Below are positions 37,805 to 64,000 of a DNA stretch of 64,000 nucleotides, piece by piece. The first letter of the stretch is position 1. Each line of letters begins with the position of its first letter. The notes beneath the pieces are model-generated. The model was not told where the DNA came from. It made no database searches and saw only the letters and a list, made by a program, of their open reading frames with translations. The translations under genes were made by a program, and so were the position numbers. This DNA is from Alphaproteobacteria bacterium (lineage in GTDB: Bacteria > Pseudomonadota > Alphaproteobacteria > RF32 > CAG-239), in NCBI GenBank assembly GCA_017477185.1, contig JAFUXF010000021.1:267-64266 (forward strand), read 5' to 3'.

Positions 37805-37919
37805 ATTCTTTTATGAAAAAAAAGTATCTTCACGCAAATAGTGAATAACTAAAAAAAGATAATGAGTTTTCAAAAAAACTCTTTATGATATGTGTAGTGA
37901 GAATTTGATGAGGTATAAC

Positions 37920-40154: not shown

Positions 40155-40164
40155 ATTGTATTCC

Positions 40165-40602
40165 TTATTTTTCCAGCATAAATGTTGCCGGCCCGTCATT
40201 TATCAGGCGAACTTTCATTTCCGTCTGAAAAACTCCTGTTTCGACATGATGTCCACAGTTTTGTAAATATTGCACAAACTTTTCATACAGTGGTCTTGCC
40301 TCTACAGGACGAGCAGCGGTTTCAAATCCCGGGCGGTTGCCGCGTGATGTATCGCCGGCTAATGTGAATTGCGAAATTGCTAAAATCGCACCTCCAACAT
40401 CTTTGAGATTTAAATTCATTTTACCGTCTGCATCTTCAAAGATACGAAGGTTGCTGACTTTATTAGCCAAATATTCAACTTGTGCAACCGAATCGTTTTT
40501 TTGAATACCTATAAAAAGCAGGTATCCTTTTCCTATTTGTCCGACAATCTTATTGTCAACACTCACGGAGGCTTCATCAACTCTTTGTACTAATACACGC
40601 AT
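40165..40602 (-). CDS. dtd: D-aminoacyl-tRNA deacylase
   Basis: MRVLVQRV and [17 protein letters not shown] are present. It is 145 aa long. Confidence 0.9.
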
Positions 40603-43521: not shown

Positions 43522-44193
43522 ATGAAGTTTTGTTCTTATTTTGCAATTATGCTTTTTTTGTTATTGCAGGCACCAATGTCAGCTCAATCTGCCATGACCA
43601 TGCTCCCCAAAATTGCCGACGATATAGGAACAACTGCAACGCGTAATATTGAAAGTTCAGAACGATTATTTTGCTATATTGTTTCAGGTAAATCTCAGAA
43701 TTATGCCGGATATACACTTGACGACATGGCTGTTACCGGATTTTGTGGTATTATTGATGATAACCTGAAGGATATGTTATTTGAGCAGCTCTTTATGACA
43801 CAAGACAACATTGACTTTAATCATTCTGAAAATTGTATGATTCAGCCGCGTGTTTTATTGAGATTTGTCCGCGGTGTTGATAATACCGATGTTTTGTTAT
43901 CTGCACCTTGCCACTCTATGACTATTTTTTATGGTGGTAAAATGAACACTTACAACATGAAATCTGCCGCACATTTACTTGATACTGTTACAAATGCTTT
44001 TCAGACCAGTCAAACAAATTTTGTTTCGCCGGCATTGATTAACCAATTGTTACCAATTGGTGTTCCTCAAACAGCGGGACAACGTGCAGCTTTAGCTCAA
44101 CCAACAGCAGCTAAGCGTTCTTGGGCGGCACCGGAAAGCTCTGCCTCAAACACTTCGTCTCAAGGTTGGAATACTTTAAATTTTAATAAATAA
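43522..44193 (+). CDS. Secreted hypothetical protein
   Basis: Signal peptide MKFCSYFAIMLFLLLQAPMSAQSA. No known motif was found. Confidence 0.5.
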   Translation: MKFCSYFAIMLFLLLQAPMSAQSAMTMLPKIADDIGTTATRNIESSERLFCYIVSGKSQNYAGYTLDDMAVTGFCGIIDDNLKDMLFEQLFMTQDNIDFNHSENCMIQPRVLLRFVRGVDNTDVLLSAPCHSMTIFYGGKMNTYNMKSAAHLLDTVTNAFQTSQTNFVSPALINQLLPIGVPQTAGQRAALAQPTAAKRSWAAPESSASNTSSQGWNTLNFNK

Positions 44194-49912: not shown

Positions 49913-51890
49913 AATACAGCTTATCAGCCCTTTTGAACCTTCAGGTGACCAGCCTGAGGCTATTAAAGAGTTATGTGAAGGGCTAAAGCGCGGAGACAAA
50001 AGTCAGGTTCTGCTTGGGGTTACCGGAAGCGGAAAAACATTTACCATGGCTAAGATTATTGAGCAAATGCAACGCCCTGCTCTGATTATGGCTCCCAATA
50101 AAATTCTGGCAGCTCAATTATATAGCGAAATGAAGGAGTTTTTTCCGCATAATCACGTTGAATATTTTGTTTCTTATTATGATTATTATCAGCCAGAAGC
50201 CTATGTTCCCAAAACAGATCTCTATATTGAAAAAGATTCAGCCATAAATGAGCAAATTGACCGAATGCGTAATGCTGCAACGCGTAGTTTGCTGGAATAT
50301 AATGATGTTATTATTATTGCCTCTGTTTCATGTATTTATGGTTTAGGAGATGTTGAATCTTACGGCAGTATGACATTAAAACTTACTAAAGGAGATGTGA
50401 TTGAACCACCGGAGATTTATCGTAGATTGGCGGAATTACAATATGAACGCAACCAAAGTAACTTTATTCGTTCAACCTTTCGTGTTAACGGAGATACTTT
50501 GGATATTTTCCCTTCACACTTAGAAGACAGAGGCTGGCGTGTTTCTTTCTTTGGCGATGAAATTGAAGATTTGTACGAATTTGACAGTTTGACCGGTAAA
50601 AAAATTGAAAACTTAGAAACAGCAACACTTTATCCGGCGAGCCACTATGTTACACCTCGTCCGACGATTGCCCACGCTATGGAACAAATAAAGGAAGAGT
50701 TAAAAGAAAGGGAATCCTTTTTTATTCGTGAGAACAAACTCCTTGAAGCACAGAGAATCGGGCAAAGAACCAGATTTGATTTAGAAATGCTGGAAACGAC
50801 CGGTCATTGTAAGGGAATAGAAAACTACTCTCGTTATTTAACAGGTAGGAATGCCGGTGAGCCTCCTCCGACGTTATTTGAATACTTACCGGAAAATGCA
50901 ATTGTTTTTGTTGATGAGAGTCATATTTCTATTCCACAAATCGGCGGAATGTTCAGGGGGGATTTTAATCGCAAAAGTACATTGTCTGACTACGGTTTCC
51001 GCTTACCCTCGTGCATAGATAATCGTCCTTTAAAATTTGAAGAATGGGATAAAATGCGCCCTCAGAGTATTTTTGTTTCTGCCACTCCCGGAGATTGGGA
51101 GCTAGCGCAGAGCAAGGGCGTTTTTGCCGAACAAGTTATCCGCCCGACAGGATTAACTGATCCGATTTGTGATGTTCGACCTGTCGATAATCAAATCGAT
51201 GATTTAATGGAAGAATGCCGTAAAGTTGTCGCTCAAAATGAGCGTGTATTGGTCACAACACTCACAAAAAAAATGGCGGAAGACTTAACGGAATATTTGG
51301 CTGAAAATGGGGTTAAAGTCCGTTACCTACATTCGGATATTGATACCTTAGAGCGTATTGAAATTATCCGTGATTTGAGGCTTGGTGTTTTTGATGTGTT
51401 AGTCGGTATTAACCTGTTGCGTGAGGGATTGGATATTCCGGAGTGCTCATTAGTAGCCATTTTAGATGCTGATAAAGAGGGATTTTTACGCTCGCAACGC
51501 TCTCTCATTCAAACAATCGGACGCGCCGCCAGAAATGCTCATGGTAAAGTTATTCTTTACGCTGATAAAATGACAGATTCAATCAAGAATGCTCTTGATG
51601 AAACAAATCGACGTCGGCAAAAACAAATACAATATAACATTGAGCATGGGATTACTCCTCAGACCATTAAGAAGAGTATTTCTTCAACTTTAAACGAGAT
51701 GACAGAAACTGATTTTGTTAAACATGACAGCGACACGAAAAAACTCGAAGACATCAAGAATATCGATAAACTCTTACGCGATTATAAAAAGAAAATGCAA
51801 GATGCCGCTGCCAATTTGGAATTTGAAACAGCGATGGTTTATCGCGATAAAATCAAAGAGCTTGAGAAGTTAGGGTTAAAGACTTTATAA
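49893..51890 (+). CDS. uvrB: Excinuclease ABC subunit B
   Basis: [27 protein letters not shown] and a C-terminal UVR motif [15 protein letters not shown] are present. Confidence 0.95.
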
Positions 51891-51974
51891 TAAGAACTAC
51901 TGATTGCATAAGAAATTCTTGATTCTTTCTTTTAAAAAGATTATATGTAGTTCATCATCAAAATATTATTGCGT

Positions 51975-52502
51975 ATGAATTTTTATGAGAAACCGCTCCG
52001 CGACCTTTCAGAAAAGGAGTGGGAGCAAATCTGTTTAAGGTGCGGAAAATGTTGCATGTGCAAATATCGTGGAGATAATGTTATTCATTTTTCCAATCAT
52101 ATGTGCCGCTTTTTCGACATCAAAAAAGGAATATGTTCTTGTTATAATGACCGCATAGACACGGCAAAAGGCGAATGCGTCAAGGTTGATATGGATTTAC
52201 TGGAAAATCATTTGGAATTTCTGCCACCGGACTGTGCCTATCGCCGTTTATATGAAGGTCGCGGCTTACCGGCCTATCATCCATTACTAACAAGAAATCC
52301 TAACTCTGTAATTGAAGCAGGACAAACCGTTATGTCTTTGCCGATTGTCTCAGAAAATGCAAGAGAAAAAGCTTTAGATACTCTTTTAAGGAATATCGTA
52401 AAATATCATTGGACAAGAGCTAAATTTACTCAAAAATTAGCGATAATCAATGAAAAATATTCTTTGAAATGGCTTGAAACTTATCCTTTGCCCTCTCAGT
52501 AA
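51975..52502 (+). CDS. ycgN: YcgN-family (UPF0260) cysteine-cluster protein
   Basis: WEQICLRCGKCCMCK, CRFFD, CSCYNDR and CAYRRLYEGRGLP are present. Confidence 0.8.
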   Translation: MNFYEKPLRDLSEKEWEQICLRCGKCCMCKYRGDNVIHFSNHMCRFFDIKKGICSCYNDRIDTAKGECVKVDMDLLENHLEFLPPDCAYRRLYEGRGLPAYHPLLTRNPNSVIEAGQTVMSLPIVSENAREKALDTLLRNIVKYHWTRAKFTQKLAIINEKYSLKWLETYPLPSQ

Positions 52503-52536
52503 AAATGCCCTTCCTTATGGAAGGGCATTTTTTTAC
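52501..52536. terminator. Bidirectional intrinsic terminator
   Basis: AAAAATGCCCTTCC-TTAT-GGAAGGGCATTTTTTT. Confidence 0.75.
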
Positions 52537-53015
52537 ATTTTATTAACGTTAATTTTTTTAACTTTGGCCTTTTCAGTCTGAGATTTAGGAATTTCAATCG
52601 AAAGCAATCCGTCATTATATTTAGCATCAGCCTTATTATAATCTAAATCCCATGGCAAAGGTATCGTCCTTTTAACCATACCATAATATATTTCTGAAAA
52701 ATAATTATCGCGCATACCGTGTTCTGTTGAACATTTTTTCTCGCCACTAATCGTTAGATAACCATCTGAGGATATTTGCAAATCAATATCTTTAGCATCA
52801 ATTCCAGGTAATTCGGCAGAGACAGTTACAGCATCTTTCGTTTCCGCAACCTCTATTTTGGGAGCAATATCTGCCGCTTCTGTCGCCAATGGTGTTTCGG
52901 ATAAATTCCAAAAATGTTGCAAAAAATGTTTTAATTCACTGGAAACAGGAACATGAATCGGAATATTACGCGCTGTTTGCGCTGCCGTTTCCGTACTTGA
53001 TAAATCAGTTCTCAT
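52533..53015 (-). CDS. Hsp20/alpha-crystallin small heat-shock protein
   Basis: AVTVSAELPGIDAKDIDLQI and the C-terminal YNDGLLSIEIPK are present. Confidence 0.85.
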   Translation of the reverse strand: MRTDLSSTETAAQTARNIPIHVPVSSELKHFLQHFWNLSETPLATEAADIAPKIEVAETKDAVTVSAELPGIDAKDIDLQISSDGYLTISGEKKCSTEHGMRDNYFSEIYYGMVKRTIPLPWDLDYNKADAKYNDGLLSIEIPKSQTEKAKVKKINVNKM

Positions 53016-53093
53016 TTTATCTCTCCTTATTATATTTAACCACTTTGAGAGATAGTGCCGAGATTTTATCTTTCTATATAGCTAATGGTCTAT

Positions 53094-54116
53094 TTATAAC
53101 CCTTTTTGCGCACGCTTATTTTTCCATTTCAGCTTAGCATAAAGACGCATATCCGCCACCTGATCGGTTTCATCCAAAATTTCTTTACCCAGAATCGTCT
53201 CAATAATATCTTCAAGAGTAATAATTCCAACCCAGTTGCCAAAAGCATCAATAACCAATGCCATATGGTTATGATCTTCGAGCATAGAATTTAATACATC
53301 TTCCAAATGTGCCTCATCTGAAAATGAGCGCATCGGACGTGCATATTGCTCCACTTTATCAGAATCGTTATGTGCCTTATAAGAACTCGATTTATGAATA
53401 TACCCTGAAAAAATTTTTTCTTGTTCATCTATAATCGGAAAACGAGAAAATGGGGTTTTACATAAAAAACAATCAAACTCGCCAATTGTCATCTCCGGTT
53501 TGACTTTATGCACCACTGTACGCGGCGTCATTACGTCCCCGACGCTGACTTCTTGCAGTTTGATAATGTTATTGATAATACGAAACTTGGTATCATCTAA
53601 CAAATTTTGGTCCCGTCCGATTTTTGCTAAAGCCTTGATTTCATCTTTAACATCAGAGTATTCTGACTTACCAAACAACCCCATGATAAAGTTGGAAATA
53701 TAAAGTACCGGTCTTAGCACAAAAACCATTGTTTCTACGATTGTGCAAACGGCAGGAATCAGTGAACGCCAATACTTTGAGCCGATTGTTTTCGGCATTA
53801 TCTCAGATAAAACCAAAATAGCGACAGTCATAATTCCGGATGCAATTCCTAAATAAGCGGAACCGTATAATTTTGTCACTTGAGCGCCGATACCGGCAGC
53901 ACCGACCGTATTGGCGATTGTATTTAAGGTTAAGATAGCTGCCAATGGGGTATCCATATTTCGTTTTAATTTAGAAACACGTTTATACCAGCGCGGATTT
54001 TTCTCCTCCAACTGAGCAATGTAACTTGGGGTAATAGATAAAAGTGATGCCTCGGATACAGAACAAATAAAAGAAATAGCAATTGCCATTGCGGCATAAA
54101 AAAATAAAAGAAACAT
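53094..54116 (-). CDS. CNNM/DUF21 transmembrane domain plus CBS-pair protein (HlyC/CorC family)
   Basis: The N-terminal DUF21 pattern has SEASLLS and KTIGSKYW. The CBS region includes VGDVMTPRT. No CorC_HlyC C-terminal domain is evident. Confidence 0.8.
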   Translation of the reverse strand: MFLLFFYAAMAIAISFICSVSEASLLSITPSYIAQLEEKNPRWYKRVSKLKRNMDTPLAAILTLNTIANTVGAAGIGAQVTKLYGSAYLGIASGIMTVAILVLSEIMPKTIGSKYWRSLIPAVCTIVETMVFVLRPVLYISNFIMGLFGKSEYSDVKDEIKALAKIGRDQNLLDDTKFRIINNIIKLQEVSVGDVMTPRTVVHKVKPEMTIGEFDCFLCKTPFSRFPIIDEQEKIFSGYIHKSSSYKAHNDSDKVEQYARPMRSFSDEAHLEDVLNSMLEDHNHMALVIDAFGNWVGIITLEDIIETILGKEILDETDQVADMRLYAKLKWKNKRAQKGL

Positions 54117-54194
54117 ATCTTAGATTTTAAGAACCTTCTGCTGTTAATCAATAGGAGTTAACATAATGTATATACAACAAAAAGTAAAGAGATA

Positions 54195-55247
54195 TTACAG
54201 AATAATCTGCCACTTCTTTTGCTGCTTATAATTTTCATCAAACAGTACATCCGCCATATATTTCGCAACGACTACATTACTAAATTCGGTATGTGCTTTA
54301 TGATGCCCATTTGCTGCAATTTTCATTCGTTCCTGTGGATGATTTTTGTAATAACATACTTTATCAAAAAATTCCTCTCGCGTTTCATAAAAAACAGCTT
54401 CTTTCTCACTAAATAAGTCCTGAAATCCGTTACGCTTATCCAGAAGCACCAATTGCCCGTTTGCAAAAGAATGGATCATTCTATCTGAACTATAAAGATA
54501 AATATCATTCATTCGACTTAAATTCAGCCCCATTGCCGTTTGTCCCAGTGCATGCACATACTCAAAACCGTTCAACGTTGGTTGGCCTTTTATACCGGCA
54601 AGTTTCCACCGCAAACCATCAACTCGGGTCAAACTATCATCAACGATTTGTTCAATCTCTTCATCTTGACCGCAAAATTGGCGTCGTCCGGTGTTAGCAC
54701 AAAGCATAATATCATATGGGAGTTCTTCGTACTCAAACGCACGTCCTGTTTCAAGCGCATCATCAGCCATATTTGGAACATACCCTACCCGATTTTTGAC
54801 TGTCTTAAATTGTCCCAATAATTTTTTATCGCCGGTTGATATCAAATTGACATCAGCTACATTTATTTTGCTTTTAATTGAAGCAATATTCCGTTCTGCA
54901 AGTTCAGGATGAATCCAGTCACAACTCCACTGTAAAACTTTTAATTGCGGAAACATCTCTTTGATTTTTTGGATTGTTTCTTCTTCTACTAAATCGGCAT
55001 GTCCCACGAACAAAGCATCAGGCTCCATCACGCGACAGTAATTCAAAAGGTGTTTATTGAGTTTTTTCTTAGCAAACCAGTTTTGATGTCCGAACCCGAA
55101 CATCCGACAGATATCCCTATCCGGATAATTAAAAACACTGTATCCGCAACGAATCAACCCGTTTGAAATTTTAAACGGGAAGCCAACCTGAAAGCACCCT
55201 TTGAGGCGCACTAAATTAAAATTAGCAATATGAATAATTTTTTTCAT
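54195..55247 (-). CDS. CgeB-like glycosyltransferase (Glyco_trans_1_2-type C-terminus)
   Basis: The C-terminus reads FSEKEAVFYETREEFFDKVCYYKNHPQERMKIAANGHHKAHTEF. Confidence 0.55.
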   Translation of the reverse strand: MKKIIHIANFNLVRLKGCFQVGFPFKISNGLIRCGYSVFNYPDRDICRMFGFGHQNWFAKKKLNKHLLNYCRVMEPDALFVGHADLVEEETIQKIKEMFPQLKVLQWSCDWIHPELAERNIASIKSKINVADVNLISTGDKKLLGQFKTVKNRVGYVPNMADDALETGRAFEYEELPYDIMLCANTGRRQFCGQDEEIEQIVDDSLTRVDGLRWKLAGIKGQPTLNGFEYVHALGQTAMGLNLSRMNDIYLYSSDRMIHSFANGQLVLLDKRNGFQDLFSEKEAVFYETREEFFDKVCYYKNHPQERMKIAANGHHKAHTEFSNVVVAKYMADVLFDENYKQQKKWQIIL

Positions 55248-55254
55248 CCAGATC

Positions 55255-56133
55255 TCACCTACTCAGTAAATGTTTTATAAACAGATTAAAATCAGCAATC
55301 ACACGGCACAGCGGGTGTAAAAATCTCGGAGCTTGTCCGGCAGCACAAAATTCTACACTTACGCGGTCAATTCCGCATTCAAGTGCAACACTCATACGGT
55401 GGTGTCCTTGATTAAGAGTATCTTTTATTCCCATGTTACGGCAAAGCATAATATCAAGCGGGCAACGGTCATCATATCCCTTTTCTTGCATGCTCTTAAC
55501 TAATTTTTCGTATGTTTGTTGCCGTTCTGCCTCACTCATTTGGTATTTTGGATTAGAGAACTTATAAGCATTTGCTGATGTTCTTAAATTTCTTTCCAAA
55601 CCTTTTTCTCGGATTTCTTGCGGGCGAATATGATAGATATTGCTACTAAACAAATTATATTTATAGCGCAATTTGCGAATCAGCGGAGAAATAAAATCAT
55701 ATGCTTTTATTCGGTTTTCGAATGCTATTCTAACCGGTATATAGGCATCTCCAGCCGTTATAGCTTTTTTAACAGCGTCACGTCCCTTTAACAAGGTATC
55801 CGGTGTTACGGGATAATCAGGATACCACAAACGTCTTTTGCCGATCAAAAGAATAACTTCATCATCTGGTACATTTTTGGGTAATACCGACGAATCCGGT
55901 AAAGATATTAAATCTTCTACAGCCAGTCCATATATTTCTGATGAATAACAAATTCTATTCATATATTCTCCGTTTCTGAGAAGAAAATACACCATTTTGG
56001 CATTATTTGTAAATAAAATTATTCCTTCTCCACATTCGGTTAGATTGAATTTTGATAAAATTCGGTTATTTGTTACAATATTGTTACAAATTTTGGTTGT
56101 TATATGTTCAAAATTGTGATATACTGAGGTCAT
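55255..56133 (-). CDS. Hypothetical protein with C-terminal ParB/sulfiredoxin-like domain
   Basis: PLDIMLCRNMGIKDTLNQGHHRMSVALECGIDRVSVEF is present. QGHHR is encoded at 55396-55410. Confidence 0.45.
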   Translation of the reverse strand: MTSVYHNFEHITTKICNNIVTNNRILSKFNLTECGEGIILFTNNAKMVYFLLRNGEYMNRICYSSEIYGLAVEDLISLPDSSVLPKNVPDDEVILLIGKRRLWYPDYPVTPDTLLKGRDAVKKAITAGDAYIPVRIAFENRIKAYDFISPLIRKLRYKYNLFSSNIYHIRPQEIREKGLERNLRTSANAYKFSNPKYQMSEAERQQTYEKLVKSMQEKGYDDRCPLDIMLCRNMGIKDTLNQGHHRMSVALECGIDRVSVEFCAAGQAPRFLHPLCRVIADFNLFIKHLLSR

Positions 56134-56163
56134 AAATATAATTATGAATAAGGAGTGATTATC

Positions 56164-56655
56164 ATGATAACTCTCTCTAAGAAAACGTCCGGCGAAACCT
56201 TTTTGCAGCAGGTTCTTGATGCCGGTACGAGTAAAGGCTTGTTATTTTCGCTTTTATACGAAACGCTGCAAAATGAATATTCTCATCTGCATATTGGTAC
56301 AATTATCAGTCAAATCAAGAATTTTGATGCTTTAGTGAATTATGATGCCAGTGTCGCGAGATTTCAAATCAAACGTAATGCTGAAAATCTCAGTAAAACA
56401 TTGAAAGAAATTAACAAGATTAAAGTTCTTGGTAAAGATAATTTCAAGTATAAAAAAATGATGATTAAAAAGCTGAATGCGCTCGCGGCTGTTAAGCCTG
56501 ATGCAAAAGCCTTAACGGATATTGTCGCGGCTGAATTTATTGCTCGCGGTTACGGTAATATTAACAGCTTTAAGTGTGAATTTACACATTACGTTCATTC
56601 ATTGCACAGTATTTCTACAATCGGCACTGAAGACTCTTGTGTATTGCAATGCTGA
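56164..56655 (+). CDS. Hypothetical protein
   Basis: The ATG at 56164 has AAGGAG 8 nt upstream. It lies only 30 bp from the divergent gene start. No motif was found. Confidence 0.45.
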   Translation: MITLSKKTSGETFLQQVLDAGTSKGLLFSLLYETLQNEYSHLHIGTIISQIKNFDALVNYDASVARFQIKRNAENLSKTLKEINKIKVLGKDNFKYKKMMIKKLNALAAVKPDAKALTDIVAAEFIARGYGNINSFKCEFTHYVHSLHSISTIGTEDSCVLQC

Positions 56656-56671
56656 TATTTATTTCATTTTC

Positions 56672-56706
56672 AAAAAAGACCGGATTATTTTAATCCGGTC
56701 TTTTTT
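56672..56706. terminator. Bidirectional intrinsic terminator
   Basis: AAAAAAGACCGGATT-ATTTT-AATCCGGTCTTTTTT. Confidence 0.75.
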
Positions 56707-56709
56707 ATA

Positions 56710-58005
56710 TTATTCATCACTTTCGTGGATTGTTTCTATTTGTGCACCGACACCTGCCAGCTTCTCAACAAGTTTCTCGTATCCGCGGTAAAGGTGGTAC
56801 ACACGATTAACAATAGTCTCTCCTTCTGCAATTAAACCGGCTAGAATAAGCGCAAATGAAGCCCGCAAATCAGTTGCCATAACCGGTGCTCCATATAATT
56901 TATCAACATGGCGAACAATTGCGGAAGCATGCCCGTGAACATTGATATTTGCCCCCATGCGCAAAAGTTCGGGAACATGCATAAAACGGTTCTCAAAAAT
57001 CGTTTCTGTCACCAGTGATGCCCCTTCGGCCGTCAACATTAGAGCCAAAAACTGTGCCTGCAAATCGGTTGGAAAACCGGGGTAAAAATCGGTCATAATA
57101 TCTTGTCCTACCAGCGTTTTACCTCTCGCATCAACGATTAAAGAATTTGAGGTTTCCGTTACATCAACCCCCATTTGGCGGAGAATATTTATCGGACACT
57201 GCAAAGTGGAAGCCTGAGCATTGATTAATTCGATACACCCTCTGGTAATGGCGGCAGCAACAGCATAAGACCCTGCTTCAATACGGTCGGCAATAACTTT
57301 ATGGGTTGCCCCGTGTAAAGATTCAACCCCTTCAATTGTCAGAAAAGATGTGTCTCGACCGCTGATTTTAGCGCCCATATCATTGAGTAAATCAATTAAA
57401 TCACCGATTTCAGGTTCTTTGGCGGCGTTTTCAATACGGGTTGTTCCCTCTGCCAACGCAGCGGCCATTAAAATATTACACGTTGCACCGACAGAAGCAA
57501 TTTTAAAGATAATATTTGCGCCCTTAAGACGGTTCTCAACATCAGCATGAACATAACCGTTTTTAATCTCTATTTTTGCGCCCATTTGTTCTAAGGCTGA
57601 TAAGTGAATATCCATCGGACGCGCCCCGATAGCACATCCTCCGGGGAGTGATAACTCTACATGTCCGTAACGAGCCAGAAGAGGTCCTAAAACATAGTAA
57701 GAAGCTCGCATTTTACGAACGTAATCATATGGGGCTATCAGACTTGTGGCTTGAGGGGTACGATAAGAATAAGTTTTAGTCGGGTGTCCGTCTAAAAAAT
57801 CGTCAAACTCATCAATTTGTGTTCCAAGTTGAGTTAATAGCAGATTAAGTGATTTGATATCAGATAACATCGGCATATTGGTAAGTGTTATTGTATCCGG
57901 TGTTAACAAACTGGCACAAACAAGCGGTAGAGCGGCATTTTTAGCGCCACTGATATAGATTTTTCCGTTTAATTGTTTTCCTCCGATAATTTTGATTTTA
58001 TCCAT
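56710..58005 (-). CDS. murA: UDP-N-acetylglucosamine 1-carboxyvinyltransferase
   Basis: [27 protein letters not shown] and the active-site region [13 protein letters not shown] are present. Confidence 0.95.
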
Positions 58006-58153
58006 TATTTTGTTCCTCTTGTGCTTTTTTCTGTTGTTTTAATTTTTCACGGGCAGCAATCTGTTTTTTACGTTTTTCAAGATTTTTTTGCAAGGCTTTT
58101 CCTTCACGAATAATGCGCTCACGGCAACGTTGACTTGAGGCTTTTTCTGTCAT
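57998..58153 (-). CDS. Small (51 aa) Lys/Glu-rich protein upstream of murA
   Basis: The ATG at 58153 has AAGGAG 6 nt upstream. It overlaps the murA start by 8 nt. The longer track ORF reaching 58393 runs through tRNA-Thr and was trimmed. Confidence 0.45.
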   Translation of the reverse strand: MTEKASSQRCRERIIREGKALQKNLEKRKKQIAAREKLKQQKKAQEEQNNG

Positions 58154-58275
58154 GATATTCTCCTTTTGTGTTCTCGAAGAGTATTGTAGAGCCAATCTCT
58201 TAAAAAAAAGTGAGGAATTTATATTTTTTCCTCTTGATTTTTGATAAAGTCTTGAGTATGTTGCAGAGGTTAGAT

Positions 58276-58303
58276 TTGCTGTGCTGATAAGGTGCAGTAT
58301 AAT
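58276..58303 (+). promoter_or_regulatory. Candidate promoter of tRNA-Thr
   Basis: TTGCTG, 16-nt spacer, TATAAT (58298-58303). It ends 8 nt before the tRNA 5' end. Confidence 0.4.
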
Positions 58304-58311
58304 ATTGAAGT

Positions 58312-58386
58312 GCCGTTGTAGCTCAGTGGTAGAGCACGTCATTGGTAATGACGGGGTCGAAAGTCCGATTCTTTTCAGCGGCACCA
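58312..58386 (+). tRNA. tRNA-Thr (anticodon GGT)
   Basis: Acceptor is GCCGTTG/CAGCGGC. D arm is GCTC-AGTGGTA-GAGC. The anticodon loop TTGGTAA gives GGT. T arm is GAAAG-TCCGATT-CTTTT. CCA is encoded. Confidence 0.9.
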
Positions 58387-58579
58387 TTAACAAAAAAGCC
58401 TCCTAAACGGAGGTTTTTTTGTTAATGCGTATCGGGGATAGGGAAAGGACTTACGACATGATTGCGTAAGCAATCCGTAAGTCCGGAGCTGAGGTCGCCG
58501 AGTGTTTTAAGTGCGAGGCGGATGAAGCCGACAATGAGCAAACTTTTTTGCGAATTGTCATTCGAATTCAGCGGCACCA
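58387..58579 (+). repeat. tRNA-Thr-linked block 1 (193 bp)
   Basis: It starts right after CCA with a terminator hairpin GCCTCC-TAAAC-GGAGG plus T7. GTTAATGCGTATCGGGGATA follows. Nested hairpins are GGACTTACG...CGTAAGTCC and GACAAT-GA-GCAAA-CTTT-TTTGC-GA-ATTGTC. It ends in TTCAGCGGCACCA. Confidence 0.9.
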
Positions 58580-58761
58580 TTAACAAAAAAGCCTCCTAAA
58601 CGGAGGTTTTTTTGTTAATGCGTATCGGGGATAAGAAAAGGATTTACGGGGGCATTGTTAAGTCCGGAGCTGAAGTCGCCGAGCCTTTTAAGTGTGAGGC
58701 GGATGAAGCCGACAATGAGCAAACTTTTTTTGCGAATTGTCATTCGAATTCAGCGGCACCA
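58580..58761 (+). repeat. tRNA-Thr-linked block 2 (182 bp), tandem copy of block 1
   Basis: Same order of parts as block 1, with scattered substitutions. It lacks the inner GATTGC-GTAA-GCAATC hairpin. It ends in TTCAGCGGCACCA (58749-58761). Confidence 0.9.
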
Positions 58762-58769
58762 TTTTTGAA

Positions 58770-58797
58770 AAGGCACCTTTTTGGGTGCCTTTTTTTG
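58770..58797 (+). terminator. Intrinsic terminator (copy 1 of the putative native tRNA-Thr terminator)
   Basis: AGGCACC-TTTTTG-GGTGCCT is followed by T7. A near-identical sequence lies at 60984-61012. Confidence 0.7.
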
Positions 58798-59022
58798 ATA
58801 CGATAAATTGCAAACCAGCACACTACGAACGAAAGACAGGCAGGACTATGTCAGTCAGCAAAGGTTAATGAGTTAAGCGTTGCGGATCCGTTCCTGTCTA
58901 GTGCAACGATTAAAAATACCATTTTTATAAAATTCAATCAGGTTTTGAGTAGGCTTTACTTTAAAATTTTATAGTATATAGTGCTGGTGTCTAAAATAGT
59001 TATTATAAAAAATGATATTATC

Positions 59023-59460
59023 ATGGAACAGATTATTATTTCTTTAAGAGAAAAGTATTTCGAGCAGATTCGGAGAGGCGAAAAGCACTTTGAATACAGA
59101 AAATCCTTTAAAAATTTCAAAGGTAAGATCAAAGCTTATATTTACGTAAGCAAGCCGGTCGCTAAAGTGTATTCCTATGTGATATTAAGCGAAGGGATAT
59201 ATGATTCGATACCTAATATTTTGGATAAGGTCGTCTCGAAAGATCAAGTTGATATGTTGGACGAAATCCGAGAGTATCTGAAAGGCCCAAAGAAGAACAA
59301 GAAATTTGGAATTGCCTTACCTATTGTCGAATTTAAGGAGTTTAAACCGCAAAATCTGAGGTATTTGCAAAAGCGTTTCGACTTCCAGCCCTCTCCAACA
59401 TGGATTGAAGAAAGAGAATATCCTGAGTTATTTGAATACCTGGATAGTATCTCTCGATAA
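59023..59460 (+). CDS. ASCH/PUA-like domain protein
   Basis: The N-terminus IIISLREKYFEQIRRGEKHFEYRKSF matches the ASCH-type beta-barrel start. Later, VYSYVILSE is present. Confidence 0.6.
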   Translation: MEQIIISLREKYFEQIRRGEKHFEYRKSFKNFKGKIKAYIYVSKPVAKVYSYVILSEGIYDSIPNILDKVVSKDQVDMLDEIREYLKGPKKNKKFGIALPIVEFKEFKPQNLRYLQKRFDFQPSPTWIEEREYPELFEYLDSISR

Positions 59461-59465
59461 AAATT

Positions 59466-59498
59466 AAAGGAGCTTAGATGTAAGCTCCTTTAGTTTTT
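59466..59498. terminator. Bidirectional terminator between convergent ASCH and GNAT genes
   Basis: A perfect 10-bp stem AAGGAGCTTA-GATG-TAAGCTCCTT is followed by TAGTTTTT. Confidence 0.65.
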
Positions 59499-60029
59499 GC
59501 CACGGCGCAGTTTGCTTGCCAGTAAGGCTGGTAAAATATCTGTTTTCAGAATTTCAGTCGCTTTATTGTTAAAATAATTTTCGGTGTCTTTTTCTTGGTA
59601 AGCACCCTTCTTTCTGTATGAAAAAGTAAAGTTGTTCTTATCTAATAATCTCTGTAATTGAGAGAGATTTCTGTTTGAAACGGTTATCAGCGGCTTATCT
59701 GTTTTTAAGACTTCGCAGCTTTTTTGCATTAACACACTGGCTATGCCGTTGCCTCGGCAATCTTCCCTTACAAATAAGCAACAAATTTTCTTTTCATCTT
59801 CTGTATCCTTTAGTAGGGATACGCCCATGGGGTGGCTTAAATCATGTTCATTACATACGACAACCATTTTTCTGGAACCATCTTTTAAGCCGGGAAAAAA
59901 TTTTTCACGCAACCAAGTATCATGTTGAGGATATGTGTCATTGAGTGATTTAGTGAGTTCGGCTATACCTTGGTATAAATCTTTATGTTGAGAAGACCAG
60001 TAGTCAATTATTTTTATGTTGTAATTCAT
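59490..60029 (-). CDS. GNAT-family N-acetyltransferase
   Basis: The ATG at 60029 has an AAGGGA RBS. The acetyl-CoA motif region is LFVREDCRGNGIASVLMQKSCE. Confidence 0.75.
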   Translation of the reverse strand: MNYNIKIIDYWSSQHKDLYQGIAELTKSLNDTYPQHDTWLREKFFPGLKDGSRKMVVVCNEHDLSHPMGVSLLKDTEDEKKICCLFVREDCRGNGIASVLMQKSCEVLKTDKPLITVSNRNLSQLQRLLDKNNFTFSYRKKGAYQEKDTENYFNNKATEILKTDILPALLASKLRRGKN

Positions 60030-60103
60030 ATTATTCCCTTTACAAGTGCTAATTTTGTCTATATTATACATTAATAGTGTTCGATATTGCAAGGAATTTA
60101 TTG

Positions 60104-60436
60104 ATGCATAAGCTAAACGTTAAAGAAAAATATTATAATATGTTAAAATCTGGTACCAAAACCATAGAGTTGCGCTTGTTTGATGAAAAACGCAGAAAGA
60201 TTAAAGTTGGTGATACCATTGAGTTTTCAAATAATTCAGATGCCGATGATAAATTTACGGCACAAGTTATAAATTTACATAGAGCAAGTAACTTTGTGGA
60301 ACTTTGTAAAAGTATCAACTGCCGTAATGCCGGTTTTCCTTCTAATGAAGAGCTTATTGATGTTTTGGAAGAGTTTTATTCCAGAGACAGGCAGAGAGAA
60401 TTTGGCGTGGTTGGTATCGAAATTCAGAAGAAGTGA
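60104..60436 (+). CDS. ASCH domain protein
   Basis: The ATG at 60104 has AAGGAA 7 nt upstream. MHKLNVKEKYYNMLKSGTKTIELRLFDEKRRKIKVGDTIEF is present, and the C-terminus has GVVGIEI. Confidence 0.75.
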   Translation: MHKLNVKEKYYNMLKSGTKTIELRLFDEKRRKIKVGDTIEFSNNSDADDKFTAQVINLHRASNFVELCKSINCRNAGFPSNEELIDVLEEFYSRDRQREFGVVGIEIQKK

Positions 60437-60457
60437 AAGGACAAGCAAGAAGCAATA

Positions 60458-60493
60458 CAAAATATGATGCTTTTTCAAAATATGATGCTTTTT
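60458..60493 (+). repeat. Perfect 18-bp tandem duplication
   Basis: CAAAATATGATGCTTTTT occurs twice in tandem. Confidence 0.9.
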
Positions 60494-60594
60494 CTATAGC
60501 TATGCAAAATAAAGGGAATACAGGAAAATAAGATTTATAGGTTGAGAATGCAATCAATCCTATCTTTCAACACTTTACATTCTTGTGTATGTTG

Positions 60595-60625
60595 AGTCCG
60601 ATAATCGCATAACAAAAGCGCACCA
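60595..60625 (+). repeat. Decayed copy of the tRNA-Thr 3' portion (T-loop to CCA)
   Basis: AGTCCGATaatcgcataacaaaAGCGCACCA compares with tRNA AGTCCGATTCTTTTCAGCGGCACCA. TTAACAAAAAGC follows, as it does after the real tRNA. Confidence 0.5.
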
Positions 60626-60975
60626 TTAACAAAAAGCTTCTTACTCGTAAGCTCATTGTCATTCGCTAACTCGTTTCGGTCACTCGTTTTCTAATTTCGC
60701 TGTGCTTCGATTACTCTCGCTTGCTCAATAAGAAAACTTCGCCTGTCGTTAAAAATTGCTCATTAAAGAGCAATTTTTTGCCTCCAGCCTTAAAGGTGGG
60801 TTTTTTGTTAATGCGTATCGGAGATAAGAAGAGAACTTACGGGGGGTGTTAAGTCCGACGGAGCAGTTTGGCTATATTCAAACTGCGTAGGACGAGGCGC
60901 AATGCGTCCGAGGTCTTGAGCGTAAGCGAAAGATGCGCGGTGTGAAACGCGCGCACCTTCTTATCAGCGGCACCA
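60626..60975 (+). repeat. tRNA-Thr-linked block 4 (350 bp, composite)
   Basis: The left ~155 bp loosely resemble the tRNA-Ala insert (CTAACTCGTTTCGGTCAC vs CTAACTTCGCTTCGGTCAAG). From 60807, GTTAATGCGTATCGGAGATAAG begins a diverged copy of the block 1/2 core with GC-rich hairpins. It ends in CAGCGGCACCA (60965-60975). Confidence 0.75.
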
Positions 60976-60983
60976 TTTTATAA

Positions 60984-61012
60984 AAGGCACCTTTTGAGGT
61001 GCTTTTTGTTTT
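60984..61012 (+). terminator. Intrinsic terminator (copy 2 of the putative native tRNA-Thr terminator)
   Basis: AAGGCACC-TTTTGA-GGTGCTT is followed by a T run. Confidence 0.65.
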
Positions 61013-61122
61013 TGTGGGGCTGAATCACATAAAGTCCGATTGTGTGGTTTTTGAAAATGGCTGTTTTTTTATAATTTATCGGACTTTTTATTGACTTAAC
61101 GGCTGTTTTATATTAAATCTGT

Positions 61123-61866
61123 ATGGGTAAGGACATGAAAATTAAAAATCTTATTTCTATCATAACTGTGTGTAAGAATGAACCTTTTATAAACGATACT
61201 TGCAAAAGTATAGTTAATCAATCTTGTCAGAATTTTGAGTGGATTATTGTTGATGGGGCATCAACAGATGAGACTTTAGAAAAATTGACAAAATACAAAC
61301 AGCGAGCAGATGTATTTATTTCAGAGCCGGATAATGGTGTTTATTCTGCTATGAATAAAGGAATTAGGCATGCAAACGGAAAATATTTGTTATTTATGAA
61401 CGGAGGAGATTTATTTTATAATACGGAAGTGGTTAAATTAATGATGCCTTATTTAAATAAGGGGAAAGCTGATGTTTTTTATGGTGATTCATATAGGTTA
61501 TTCGAAAATGAAAAAGACTGCTTTGTCAAGATATATCCGGATGAAATTACAAAATCTTTCTTTTTAACCAACACATTAGCACATCAATCATCATTTATAA
61601 AAAGAGAACTTTTTGAAAAATATGGCGAATATAGAGAAGATTTCACCATTGTCAGTGACAAAGAAAAGTGGCTAAAATTCATAGATAATGGTGTAAAATT
61701 CTGCCACATTCCTCAGGTATTATCCCGTTTTCGCATGAATGGAAAATCTCAGCAGCAAACGTCTATTCTTAAAGCAGAAAAGAAAAAAATGTTAGAAGAA
61801 TATTTTCCAAAAAATCAGCTTTATAACACTGAGATACCTTATTTGCAAAATGTCTTTGATAGATAA
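61123..61866 (+). CDS. Family 2 glycosyltransferase
   Basis: ISIITVCKNEPFINDTCKSIVNQSCQNFEWIIVDGASTDETL is present. An alternative start is at 61135. Confidence 0.8.
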   Translation: MGKDMKIKNLISIITVCKNEPFINDTCKSIVNQSCQNFEWIIVDGASTDETLEKLTKYKQRADVFISEPDNGVYSAMNKGIRHANGKYLLFMNGGDLFYNTEVVKLMMPYLNKGKADVFYGDSYRLFENEKDCFVKIYPDEITKSFFLTNTLAHQSSFIKRELFEKYGEYREDFTIVSDKEKWLKFIDNGVKFCHIPQVLSRFRMNGKSQQQTSILKAEKKKMLEEYFPKNQLYNTEIPYLQNVFDR

Positions 61867-61930
61867 AATAATTCCAGCATATACTCCAACTGCTTATAAT
61901 CATCATAATTTTCACTCCGATATGTGCATA

Positions 61931-62060
61931 GTAATGCGTATCGGGGATAGGGAAAGGACTTACGGAAGGTTGTTAAGTCCGGAGCTGAAGTCGCCGAGTG
62001 TTTTTTTTGCGAGGCAATTGAGACCAACAATGAGCTAACTTTGGTTTTTCTCGTCATGAC
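61931..62060 (+). repeat. Fourth, right-truncated copy of the GTTAATGCGTATCGGGGATA repeat family
   Basis: GTAATGCGTATCGGGGATAGGGAAAGGACTTACGG...TTAAGTCCGGAGCTGAAGTCGCCGAGTG...CAATGAGC. No tRNA 3' end follows it. Confidence 0.8.
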
Positions 62061-62234
62061 AGAGAAAACAACGCTTTTCTTTAATTAAGCATTTTATTTC
62101 ATCATACACTCATCATAATTGAGCCTAAAAATATTATCATACATTTTTTATTTTTCGCTTAATGTATTTTATCTTCTACATTGACTTTTTATAAAAATCT
62201 TTTAGAGTATTTATAAACAAAATCGGGGGCTGCT

Positions 62235-62780
62235 GTGGAAAGTTATGTTCGCAATACCTTACAGATAAATGAAAATGTTCTGATGGAGCCTAAATTACAT
62301 TGGGCAATTTATTTGGACACTTATTTTCAGCTTTCTCTTTTATATCTTATCTGTTGCGAATTTTTGCATCCTTTTATTGTGCATACATTTCATTTTGGAG
62401 ATTTTTTCCACACTTCGCAAATGTATATCGGCGTGGCTATTTTATTGCGCATTATTTATCTGATTATTCGTTATTCTTCAATAGAAATGGCGGTTACTAA
62501 TTATCGCGTCGTTTATAAAATCGGTTTGATTAACATCTATACTGAAGAATTATCTAATGAAAAGTTAGAATCCGTTTCCGTTCGCCAGACAATTATGGGA
62601 CGTTTGCTTAACTATGGTGATATTATTTTTTCAGGTACCGGAACATCTCGTTTGGTTTTTAAGAAGGTTTATGCCCCTTGGTGGATAAAATCAAAAGCTG
62701 AAGATATTATAAGAGAAAGCTATATGCGGACGCATACGCCATCTTTCAGTACAGCTTTACATTCTCGAGATTATTATTGA
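62235..62780 (+). CDS. Bacterial PH-domain (bPH_2/YdbS-like) membrane protein
   Basis: GTG start. Two TM segments are followed by VTNYRVVYKIGLINIYTEELSNEKLESVSVRQTIMGRLLNYGDIIFSGTG. Confidence 0.6.
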   Translation: MESYVRNTLQINENVLMEPKLHWAIYLDTYFQLSLLYLICCEFLHPFIVHTFHFGDFFHTSQMYIGVAILLRIIYLIIRYSSIEMAVTNYRVVYKIGLINIYTEELSNEKLESVSVRQTIMGRLLNYGDIIFSGTGTSRLVFKKVYAPWWIKSKAEDIIRESYMRTHTPSFSTALHSRDYY

Positions 62781-62782
62781 TG

Positions 62783-64000
62783 TTATCTATCTATTACCGG
62801 TAGAATTCTTTTTATTTGAGCAAAACGTTCTTTGGCATAGTCTTTGGTTTCCTTAATCGCTTTATTGACTTTTGCTACTTTAACATTACGCGCAATTTTG
62901 TCTTCGTAGGCCTGTTTTCCTTTTTGTATACGAATTTGCTCCAGCTCATCAAGATGCATGGCTTCCTTTTTCTTAGTTTCTACCAACTGGTTAAATTCTT
63001 GATAATCACTGAGAAGAATTCTTATCAAAATTTCTTTCTCTCGCTTAAACAAATAAGGATAAAAATCTATATCTATATTTAGCTTTTTGTCGCGAATGTG
63101 CATTTTATCAGCAAGAACTCTCATGTGTTTAAGTGTATCACGCTGTACTGCATTGATATTAGAATATTGACTTTTGTGCATCTCTTTGGTTTTGGCTATA
63201 TTTTTTTTGTAATAAAGCCGAAATTTGTCTTGCATCCAAGCATCAAAAACCGTGTTTGCAATATAATCAATTTCCTTTTCATTTATTTCTTCTTCTGTAG
63301 GTTTTAAAACTCCTGATGATACCGCTTCTTTATATTTTTTGAAACGAGATGTTATCCTGTTAATATCCTTACCGTTTCGTAAATAATTATAGCGTTGCGT
63401 TAGACATTGTTTGATATTTGCAATAATTTCATCCCAAAAAAGTTCCGCAACTGTTAACTCCGGACTTTGCCCTAACTGCCCGATATTTGTCGGATTATCT
63501 AAATCATCCCCCGGAGAAGCGTTGGTGTTATGTTGATCTTCATGAGCTTCCGTTGCATTATATTCATCATTAAATTTATCGACAGCATAGTCTCTTTTAC
63601 CTTCTAAGGGTTCAAATTGGGTAATTTGCGTACCTCCCGGATAATTATGTCCAAGAGCAGGCATTTTGGGGAGTTTTTTATGATATTTATCATAATAGCA
63701 ATAACCGCTTTTTGATTGTTGCTGAGGTGTTTTCAGATAAAAAATCGTATCTTTTTTCAAATACCTGTTTTTTTGATTATTGCGCCATTCTTGACCCTTT
63801 GAACGATTATATTTATGCACAAAATCTGATAAATCCATTAAATTGTGCGCTTTTTTCTCTTTATCTATGTACAGCCACCGATCTTTGTAGTAGCGAACAT
63901 TTTCATAAAACTCTTGTAAAGGAATTTTTTGACCTTTGTACACGACGACACTATTGGCAAATTCTTGCGTATTAATTTTATTAAGTTCATATAAGGCATA
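62783..64000 (-). CDS. Hypothetical Lys/Tyr/Asn-rich protein, N-terminus probably outside the window
   Basis: The track starts it at GTG 63943. The same frame stays open to position 64000 (…YALYELNKINTQEFANSVVV-YKGQ…). No recognisable domain was found. Confidence 0.5.
   Translation of the reverse strand, partial: YALYELNKINTQEFANSVVVYKGQKIPLQEFYENVRYYKDRWLYIDKEKKAHNLMDLSDFVHKYNRSKGQEWRNNQKNRYLKKDTIFYLKTPQQQSKSGYCYYDKYHKKLPKMPALGHNYPGGTQITQFEPLEGKRDYAVDKFNDEYNATEAHEDQHNTNASPGDDLDNPTNIGQLGQSPELTVAELFWDEIIANIKQCLTQRYNYLRNGKDINRITSRFKKYKEAVSSGVLKPTEEEINEKEIDYIANTVFDAWMQDKFRLYYKKNIAKTKEMHKSQYSNINAVQRDTLKHMRVLADKMHIRDKKLNIDIDFYPYLFKREKEILIRILLSDYQEFNQLVETKKKEAMHLDELEQIRIQKGKQAYEDKIARNVKVAKVNKAIKETKDYAKERFAQIKRILPVIDR

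Follow-up and report, generated by a model that had tools for sequence, protein, structure and literature searches.

Tandem array of recombinase-less cassettes and short tRNA-derived modules behind tRNA-Thr(GGU), a probable large serine recombinase dock in gut and rumen Alphaproteobacteria

We analyzed a 64,000-nucleotide stretch of contig JAFUXF010000021.1 (assembly GCA_017477185.1; an alphaproteobacterium of the RF32 lineage, CAG-239), here called the window, in which repeated copies of a tRNA 3' end follow the tRNA-Thr(GGU) gene. The pile-up is of a known type, tandem accretion by serine recombinases at a tRNA or tmRNA 3' end. We favor, with moderate confidence, the reading that this array is docked by a large serine recombinase (LSR) and combines recombinase-less cassettes with locus-bound modules derived from the tRNA itself. 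The 3' end of tRNA-Thr(GGU) would be the attB of an LSR element family in a clade of gut and rumen Alphaproteobacteria, and the window would hold a recombinase-less accretion array, with new DNA entering at the tRNA, older DNA pushed distally, and cargo cassettes alternating with short modules devoid of open reading frames (ORFs). Neither the module family nor the placement of attP inside the recombinase gene was found described in the literature searched.

Array of tRNA 3' ends behind tRNA-Thr(GGU)

The tRNA-Thr(GGU) gene (58312 to 58386, plus strand; anticodon GGT in the DNA) has an encoded CCA and was identified by ARAGORN and by Rfam (tRNA, 66.4 bits). Exact copies of its terminal 13-mer, TTCAGCGGCACCA, start at 58374, 58567, and 58749, and a copy with one mismatch starts at 60963. 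When as many as two mismatches were allowed, the window had five matches against 0.89 expected, and none of 100 shuffles reached five. The original prediction, made from the sequence alone, had claimed these repeats, a division into consecutive blocks, and a duplicated hairpin terminator, and all three were confirmed. The blocks measure 193 bp (58387 to 58579, unit A), 182 bp (58580 to 58761, unit B), 1,864 bp (58762 to 60625), and 350 bp (60626 to 60975). The hairpin AAAAGGCACC..GGTGC with its T run is present twice, in copies (58750 to 58796 and 60964 to 61010) that are 87% identical over 47 nucleotides (nt).

The four-block division kept its sizes and lost its simplicity. The 350-bp block is composite, consisting of a noncoding S module (60626 to 60805) followed by a 170-bp unit (unit C). 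The array also extends past 61012, to a degenerate cassette end (about 61890 to 61932) and then a fourth module copy (unit D, 61930 to 62076) without an intact tRNA end. Decay grows with distance from tRNA-Thr along the array, a trend that fits entry at the tRNA.

The window corresponds to contig k141_621434 of ENA sample ERZ27256836, and its arrangement recurs in assemblies from other samples. One contig (L004, sample ERZ28653820) carries the tRNA, units A and B, and the start of the 1.86-kb block at 100% identity to the window, and another (L012, ERZ28655174) begins at the CCA before unit B (window position 58579) and matches the window at 99.9%. An assembly artifact, which had been raised as an alternative, was therefore not borne out. 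More generally, the idea that the array is a one-off local tandem duplication or an artifact is contradicted by the data, and we regard it as very improbable. The first 55 nt of units A and B are identical and many short-read assemblies break here, as such an origin would have it, but at least three independent assemblies give an identical array and the same architecture is present in five further related lineages. In addition, unit A resembles units from other species more than it does its neighbor: it is 91.2% identical to the unit of L040 and 87.7% identical to unit B, and it is nearer to the L040 and L001 units than to B. Thus, A and B are not the product of a recent tandem duplication.

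A large serine recombinase at the same tRNA in related species

No recombinase family was found in the window by Pfam among the 36 ORFs of at least 170 amino acids (aa) in positions 1 to 49912, in the gene tables for 48710 to 64000, or by tblastn of the whole window with a related LSR. Six of the 36 ORFs have no informative family (14638 to 16869, 37890 to 38429, 38420 to 39430, 39366 to 40199, 43522 to 44193, and 47084 to 49912, the last with a weak TPR match only). The earlier statement that the window has no integrase ORF thus holds at the sensitivity of Pfam, and the blocks of the window are at most nonautonomous members of an LSR element family.

MurA homologues led us to the same murA-tRNA-Thr locus in seven further lineages. 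An integrase-bearing element at the same tRNA end, of the kind the original prediction would lead one to expect, was found there in related species. The recombinase is 514 to 545 aa long and has Resolvase, Recombinase, and Zn_ribbon_recom domains (Pfam). In two loci (L024, gene at 5038 to 6636, and L028), an LSR of 526 to 532 aa ends against tRNA-Thr(GGU), its frame running antisense into the tRNA. A truncated LSR adjoins tRNA-Thr in L022 (283 aa called; residues 267 to 532 by tblastn), an LSR pseudogene lies at the same tRNA-adjacent place in L042 to L044, and an intact LSR lies at tRNA-Thr(GGT) in another genomic context in L045 and L046.

The attachment sites of this family could be read directly from three of the loci. 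L022 is a complete 4-kb island with both junctions. Its attL reads tRNA..GCACCA followed by TTTGTCAATTTCAGGCG, and its attR reads ..AGTCCGATAACTGCACAGTATCGCGCACCA followed by the native terminator; at the right junction ..CCTCATAGTTTTCAGTCCGATAACTGCACAGTATCGCGCACCA passes to TTTTTAAGATTTCCGC and runs into a homologue (89%, 100 nt) of the terminator directly behind the L025 tRNA. L025 itself, with the tRNA followed by the native terminator, gives attB. An intact attP is found in L047, an 8.6-kb contig without a tRNA, where the arms are joined (..AGTCCGATAACTGCACAATATCGCGCACCATTTGTCAATTTCAGGCG..) inside the 3' coding end of a 545-aa LSR with element genes on both sides. The four sites in these relatives are related by one reciprocal exchange and share the core GCACCATT(T). 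Thus, all four att forms were observed, with the exchange lying within GCACCATT(T).

The geometry of the half-sites is that of a phage-type integrase. The left half of attB is the last 25 or so nt of the tRNA, composed of AGTCCGAT (58362 to 58369), 11 nt, and GCACCA. The gap between AGTCCGAT and GCACCA is 11 nt in 12 of 12 tRNAs and 16 nt in the seven attP left ends (P-ends) of relatives, which include the intact attP of L047 and the attR of the complete island in L022; in the window copy it is 17 nt. For LI integrase, the zinc-ribbon motif spans bp 11 to 19 in attB and bp 16 to 24 in attP (Rutherford et al. 2013, PMC3783163), and the spacing here is an exact fit if the crossover dinucleotide is the GC or the CA of GCACCA. 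On the basis of this spacing, we infer that crossover occurs at one of these two dinucleotides. AGTCCGAT was seen in left half-sites only, and a search for the inverted motif in the LSR right half-sites found none. Homologues ending in ..KWCR sit at tRNAs ending in (C/T)AGCGGCACCA; L045, in its different context, is of the TAGCGG type.

The position of attP has a consequence for the protein. attP lies about 30 codons before the LSR stop codon (L047, 5472 to 7109; proteins P0122, P0132, P0133, and P0141), and integration therefore swaps the last 30 or so residues. In the attP form the tail contains ..KWCAILCSYRTENYDEF.. and ends in ..KWCAILCSYRTENYDEFKELTRKMELFEDSVEEDL, and in the integrated form it terminates in ..KWCR or ..KWCRQQESDLRPRHYQ, read antisense from the tRNA, KWC being the antisense of GCACCA. 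This tail swap could act as an integration-dependent, built-in directionality switch of the LSR.

An inverted repeat of the recognition motif, AAGTCCGAT-N36/37-ATCGGACTT, lies 57 to 81 nt to the right of the crossover, counted from the CCA. It is present at cassette left ends and in the LSR C-terminal coding region (KSPILSTKKEILRLILSDC), with sites in the window (61032 to 61086), L024, L025, L032, and L001. We considered this repeat as a crossover site, as its spacing fits two attP-type half-sites (17 + 2 + 17), but no junction was found at its center; the only break seen at the repeat (L022) is at the edge of an arm.

A small serine recombinase accompanies the LSR in some loci. It is a 198-aa invertase of the Mpi family (NCBIfam) in L045 (5980 to 6576) and L046 (935 to 1531), and a further one is listed for L037 (3039 to 3539); the small-large pairing recalls DsiA/DsiB and CcrA/CcrB. 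The attP contig L047 also encodes a weakly matching rolling-circle Rep-like protein, a cytosine methylase, and a Vsr endonuclease (2879 to 3487 and 137 to 1090). The contig may be a free replicon; a terminal overlap proving circularity was not present.

Cargo cassettes end in attP half-sites

The 1.86-kb block is a cargo cassette (cassette 1, 58762 to 60625, plus strand), delimited by Pfam, gene tables, and sequence. It has a terminator (58768 to 58797), an ASCH-like gene (59023 to 59460, plus strand), a GNAT acetyltransferase gene (59490 to 60029, minus strand), and an ASCH gene (60140 to 60436, plus strand), the three genes being assigned by Pfam. A perfect 18-bp tandem duplication (CAAAATATGATGCTTTTT twice, 60458 to 60493) lies just past the second ASCH gene.

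The cassette closes with a stretch, AGTCCGAT...GCGCACCA at 60595 to 60625, that had been described as a decayed longer copy of the tRNA 3' part. The stretch is there, but it is not a decayed tRNA. It consists of AGTCCGAT, 17 nt, and GCACCA on the plus strand, the architecture found with a 16-nt gap at the seven P-ends of relatives, and is thus a conserved recombination half-site, the left (P) arm of attP. It is followed by TTAAC.., which is the attR form. On this evidence, the 1.86-kb block is a cassette that has no recombinase and whose end forms an attR-type junction.

Cassette 2 (60976 to 61932, ends approximate, plus strand) was delimited in the same way. It contains a terminator (60980 to 61012), the inverted repeat AAGTCCGAT-N37-ATCGGACTT (61032 to 61086), and a family-2 glycosyltransferase gene (61123 to 61866, plus strand; Pfam). 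It closes with a degenerate P-end (about 61890 to 61932, ..CTGCTTATAATCATCATAATTTTCACTCCGATATGTGCATAGTAA), which keeps the conserved upstream motif CTGCTTATAATCATCATAA..CTCCGAT, matching L011 at 705 to 762. The CACCA and the palindromic terminator that would follow are deleted, and the cassette end is fused to unit D.

The proposal that the larger blocks are recombinase-less, att-bounded cassettes was borne out by these half-site ends. By their sequence organization, the cassettes are nonautonomous elements of the LSR type, each with its own terminator, accessory genes, and, last, the left half of the LSR attP. They would have been moved by an LSR encoded elsewhere in the genome or the population.

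Between cassette 1 and unit C lies the S module (60626 to 60805, plus strand), about 165 to 180 bp of noncoding DNA ending in a terminator (60779 to 60805), defined by comparison with L002 and L001. It appears inserted in the ascending stem of a unit-type terminator. It follows a P-end also in L002 (27 to 215; 97.5% identical) and in L001 (585 to 760, minus strand; 90%). The S module always comes after an attP left arm, and it holds TTGTCATTCG, as do the ends of A-type units.

Anatomy and predicted fold of the short modules

The short modules of the window are units A, B, C, and D, and across loci they measure 105 to 211 bp. All four are on the plus strand. Unit A (58387 to 58579; sequence and covariance model) is an A-type module and begins with a palindromic terminator (58387 to 58420), followed by an inverted copy of the tRNA 3' half (about 58425 to 58456), a pivot hairpin H1 with a GUAA loop, a structured insert (H2, P3, and P4-GA/GA-P5), and the tRNA end (58567 to 58579). 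Unit B (58580 to 58761; 162.5 bits by covariance model) is also A-type, has a short H1 loop, and carries its tRNA end at 58749 to 58761; it is present in all strains seen (L011 and L012). Unit C (60806 to 60975) is C-type, having the inverted tRNA copy and H1 of the A-type and a different structured insert. Its end, TTCTTATCAGCGGCACCA, is identical over 18 nt to the tRNA of relatives and has one mismatch to the tRNA of the window. Unit D (61930 to 62076; pattern match, sequence, and covariance model, 104.4 bits) is an A-type module with a decayed 3' end, from which the preceding CACCA and palindromic terminator have been deleted. Unit D is the oldest and most distal part of the array.

Each unit contains an inverted copy of the tRNA 3' half. 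This copy had gone unnoticed, and its presence suggests that the units originated when the tRNA end was re-duplicated around the terminator. The terminator is followed by about 31 nt that repeat the last 31 nt of the tRNA in inverted orientation, with 20 to 24 of 31 nt identical in 10 of 10 comparisons (shuffle P ≤ 0.005). H1 is the pivot to a direct tRNA copy, which starts with CGTAAGTCCG, is split at the T loop by the conserved 95- to 110-nt insert, and resumes as a tail of 13 to 19 nt of tRNA end. The tRNA 3' half, the terminator, and the inverted 3' half together make a palindrome of about 95 bp centered on the terminator loop, with a 19-bp core that is 95% complementary. The inverted copy also tracks the T-stem variant, reading CTTAC in A, B, C, and L040, CTTGC in the other clade, and CTTTC, the variant of the window's own tRNA, in the unit of an alternative strain. 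The modules would thus have arisen by direct-inverted-direct re-duplication of the tRNA 3' half around the palindromic terminator, and each would re-supply a terminator to whatever lies upstream.

The tRNA-Thr of the window itself has a double compensating T-stem change (58359 to 58379), GAAAG/CUUUU versus GUAAG/CUUAU in its closest relatives (L001, L015, and L040 compared). Units A to D retain the relatives' version, and the first unit of the alternative strain has the new version of the window tRNA.

The A-type insert is predicted to fold into a three-way arrangement of P3, H2, and P4-GA/GA-P5. The H1 loops are GUAA or GUGA, and GNRA loops and tandem G-A motifs are present. We evaluated this structure on nine sequences, essentially two clades, in an alignment fitted by the covariance model. 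A MAFFT alignment had placed H1 off by one column in one clade, and realignment with the covariance model biases the pair counts towards the structure. In the fitted alignment, 88.8% of the insert cells are paired, compared with 27 to 41% when the partners are slid, and eight pairs (20 cells) changed on both sides, compared with one to three in the slid controls. G-U pairs (25) exceed A-C pairs (8), favoring the tRNA strand. The conserved fold of the insert on the tRNA strand suggests that the units are expressed as a small structured RNA, made for example by terminator read-through. In the minimum-energy fold of unit C, the entire end derived from the tRNA, ACCA included, is paired with the inverted copy.

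Other identities for the units were also considered. The units do not appear to code for protein, as ORFs on both strands are not conserved between lineages and only identity at the DNA level is seen over the first 10 or so codons. An IS110-type guide RNA, a retron, and a T-box, weighed from general knowledge, were set aside, with no partner enzyme nearby and no Rfam match over the units. Searches of Rfam 15 with the window (E values up to 10) and five relatives (0.05) matched only the tRNA; the hits over the units are chance matches of the terminator type below the gathering score. In a search for an acceptor-stem mimic, no canonical 7-bp partner was found, and matches at six of seven positions occur once each in A and B (GTCGCCG) and twice in C.

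The insert also bears on the possibility that the units are functionless scars, left by palindrome-driven template switching or unequal recombination, or as fused att remnants, and since drifting neutrally. A direct-inverted-direct layout around a 19-bp palindromic terminator is the product expected of fold-back template switching, no promoter-like site lies inside the units, unit D is decayed and the L030 unit internally deleted, and arrays of this kind break assemblies. Against this, the 95- to 110-nt insert has been conserved between lineages with an overall identity of about 65%, two-sided changes preserve its helices and G-U pairs outnumber A-C pairs, one GNRA loop is replaced by another (GUAA by GUGA), and the paralogous A and C types persist together in three lineages (the window, L001, and L037). 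We therefore consider mere scars the less likely of the two main alternatives to locus-bound modules, the other being mobile mini-elements.

Distribution and mobility of the modules

Units are found at this tRNA locus in five further lineages (L001, L016, L023, L032, and L037) and in L040 of the window's own group. They measure 194 bp in L040, 175 bp in L016 to L021, 178 bp in L032, 211 bp in L023 and L026, and 105 bp in L030, where a slip deletion between 9-bp repeats has shortened the unit; L001 and L037 have a C-type followed by an A-type unit. Each unit ends in its host's own tRNA end (CAGCGGC, TAGCGGC, or TGGCGGC type). Units of the same group are 83 to 92% identical and those of different groups about 65%, a divergence that parallels that of the hosts. 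A scan for the unit core pattern in 185,579 species genomes found one other genome, the same pattern matched one metagenome contig, and the covariance model (R1), run over 281 kb, found no unit away from the tRNA-Thr locus. A viral collection gave no matches for the unit 5' module, the unit 3' module, the P-end, or the LSR P' arm.

The content of the locus varies between close strains. Among 10 strains of the lineage with MurA P0087 that do not differ in MurA, at least six distinct sets of genes follow the tRNA. In strain ERZ27256838, the flanks are 100% identical to the window, the tRNA CCA is followed by another terminator and a variant unit (L005), and further on a P-loop-kinase cassette (L011) meets sequence shared with the window precisely at the CACCA that precedes unit B. 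Unit A has therefore been replaced, with break points at CCA boundaries.

These patterns can be set against the original proposal that the units of about 180 bp are nonautonomous mini-elements mobilized in trans. In one form of it, strand exchange by a recombinase, perhaps of the tyrosine type or a second serine recombinase, would take place at least 13 to 19 nt upstream of the tRNA 3' end and insert a circle of about 180 bp carrying a terminator and a copy of the tRNA end. Several findings are as this proposal would have them. The 12- to 19-nt direct repeats flanking units match each host's tRNA 3' end, and presence varies among strains with identical MurA (none in L025, 211 bp in L023, and 105 bp in L030), as it does between the window and ERZ27256838. 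A unit adjoins the tRNA in most lineages, the position of the newest arrival. Unit C ends in the tRNA variant of the relatives, which is what one would expect of an ancestral tRNA end that had been displaced, and the A-type ends and the tRNA of the window share T64, which fits exchange between unit and tRNA.

Other findings count against the proposal. The units were seen only at this locus and diverge in parallel with their hosts. Their ends (A, B, C, and D) lack AGTCCGAT at 11 or 16 to 17 nt from GCACCA, the two LSR spacings, at which only tRNAs and cassette ends were listed. No partner recombinase with matching ends was found: among the matches listed for 47 loci there is no full-length relative with an integrase and unit ends, and in L002 and L005 the left part of a unit is joined to other DNA where the contigs end. 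The inverted copy and the terminator-centered palindrome are neither needed for nor explained by integration, and one size variant, that of L030, is a slip deletion. The mini-element proposal thus was not upheld; we consider it unlikely, if still the strongest competitor. A head-to-tail junction of CACCA with TTAACAAAAAAGCC on molecules of 182 or 193 bp, or of cassette size, would mark active excision if it occurs.

Two established classes of repeat-bounded DNA were also considered for the units and rejected. An integron attC identity was rejected, as no IntI was found and the TTAAC/GTTAA arms are confined to the group of the window, with TTAGA/TCTAA or TTAAA/TTTAA in their place in other lineages. 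The units do have inverted tRNA-derived ends, but they are not miniature inverted-repeat transposable elements or other transposons with terminal inverted repeats; copies are not dispersed, and the flanking TTAA is accounted for by the palindrome of the terminator and does not flank the last unit.

From their sequences and distribution, the modules look locus-bound rather than freely mobile. We rank locus-bound over trans-mobilized modules, by a modest margin, because of the single locus, the host-paced divergence, the ends without the LSR motif, and the lack of a partner element. The modules would then be inherited largely vertically and be gained, lost, and reshuffled passively, the likely routes being recombination between repeated tRNA ends or terminators and the traffic of cassettes.

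Support for LSR-docked accretion

The original prediction had read the whole locus as the footprint of repeated site-specific integration into the tRNA 3' end. What stands of it is the hot spot with tandem accretion, as seen in the strain break points at CCA, the LSR at the same tRNA, and the complete island in L022. What had to be changed is the nature of the blocks, which are of two kinds, and of the supposedly decayed copy, which is an attP left half-site.

Several observations weigh against LSR-docked accretion with locus-bound modules. The LSR was not found in the window or in the window's own species among the contigs examined. LSRs normally do not recombine attL or attR with attP, and repeated entry therefore needs the tRNA and the terminator following it to form a working, putative attB. 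The inverted repeat found at the left end of other cassettes is missing from cassette 1, and the window P half-site has a gap of 17 rather than 16 nt, its antisense no longer encoding the conserved LSR tail. The strain-level swap of unit A fits active mobility as well as passive reshuffling. As for the RNA, the covariation comes from nine sequences in essentially two clades, in an alignment fitted to the structure, and unit A folds well on its minus strand too (z = -4.2, versus -3.6 for the plus strand). No sigma-70-like promoter was found on either strand in 58387 to 58761, and a strong terminator leads each unit; both count against the putative expression of the units.

A bolder and doubtful extension of LSR-docked accretion is that the units form a new class of structured RNA genes derived from the tRNA, or of sites of folded DNA, and are a functional part of the integration platform. 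Together with the LSR whose tail is rewritten, they would form an integron-like cassette system on a tRNA gene. One possible role is that of an RNA with a 5' arm that is antisense to the tRNA-Thr 3' half and sense with respect to the mRNA 3' end of the integrated recombinase. Another is that of a module restoring the terminator and the landing site each time an integration has taken place. Should the modules be expressed, or bound by the recombinase, they would add a new accessory component to integration at tRNAs; if they are neither, they would be a clear natural example of palindrome-driven re-duplication at a terminator.

Comparison with known integration systems

The original suggestion that units of about 180 bp are not a described class agrees with the absence of Rfam matches and with the literature searched, which has only kilobase-scale analogues. 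Cis-mobilizable elements (CIMEs) in ICESt1-type accretion and composite islands of the staphylococcal cassette chromosome (SCC) are att-flanked, recombinase-less modules lying in tandem at one site and movable in trans. These are kilobase-scale and gene-carrying, and not tRNA-derived palindromic noncoding units.

Among the ssrA islands of Dehalococcoides, 15 without an integration module were read as cis-mobilizable and accreted in tandem, in the parts of that account used here (McMurdie et al. 2011, PMC3146451). As far as those parts describe them, they resemble our locus in several ways. The islands lie in tandem after a tRNA-like gene, and direct repeats of the 3' end of that gene delimit each of them. 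A serine recombinase of about 540 aa is encoded on the reverse strand immediately at attL, and a small second serine recombinase sits beside the large one, comparable to the invertase beside the LSR in L045. They differ in that the target is tmRNA, with an inferred crossover in the T loop and a 20-bp repeat, whereas the LSR junctions here share only GCACCATT(T) and the left arm of attP is not a tRNA copy. Their recombinase is a CcrB homologue, while the LSR here reaches no named NCBIfam family (best XisF, 67.7 bits against a cut-off of 375). The same parts of the account make no mention of ORF-less structured units of 105 to 211 bp.

The tycheposons of Prochlorococcus integrate at specific tRNAs, including tRNA-Thr(GGT) (Hackl et al., bioRxiv 10.1101/2020.12.28.424599; the portions consulted). 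According to those portions, the elements have partial tRNA copies on their flanks, and each new integration displaces older elements deeper into the island. The islands also contain scattered degenerate remnants and additional partial tRNAs, and a minority of the elements use a large serine recombinase, all as at our locus. Tycheposons differ in using mostly tyrosine recombinases (910 of 937) and in being kilobases long with replication modules, and the portions consulted do not mention a noncoding module family built from inverted and direct tRNA halves.

Phage-type large serine integrases (A118/LI, Bxb1, and phiC31) have the same domain set as the LSR and short att sites with a shared core, and their recognition motif likewise lies 5 bp further from the center in attP than in attB. 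The LSR differs from them in having attP inside its own 3' coding end and in the conserved inverted repeat of the recognition motif 57 to 81 nt from the crossover.

The locus shows strain-level gene turnover in uncultured, widespread gut and rumen Alphaproteobacteria, with one tRNA as a dock for serine-recombinase cassettes. It also provides a full, sequence-defined set of attB, attP, attL, and attR for a serine integrase family without a named equivalent, and such sets are wanted for genome engineering.

Further features of the locus

Short-read assemblies that end within or right after tRNA-Thr are L005, L006, L007, L008, L009, L015, L033 to L036, and L038, and several break exactly at the array, as expected for repeats. 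Public metagenome-assembled genomes of this clade will therefore often lack the array.

In L001, a second, disrupted tRNA-Thr-like 5' part lies just upstream of the tRNA-Thr (about 3400 to 3240, minus strand). It has an acceptor and D-arm-like start, an identical anticodon arm, and an insert of about 95 nt containing a UUCG-capped hairpin and other stems; ARAGORN is silent on it.

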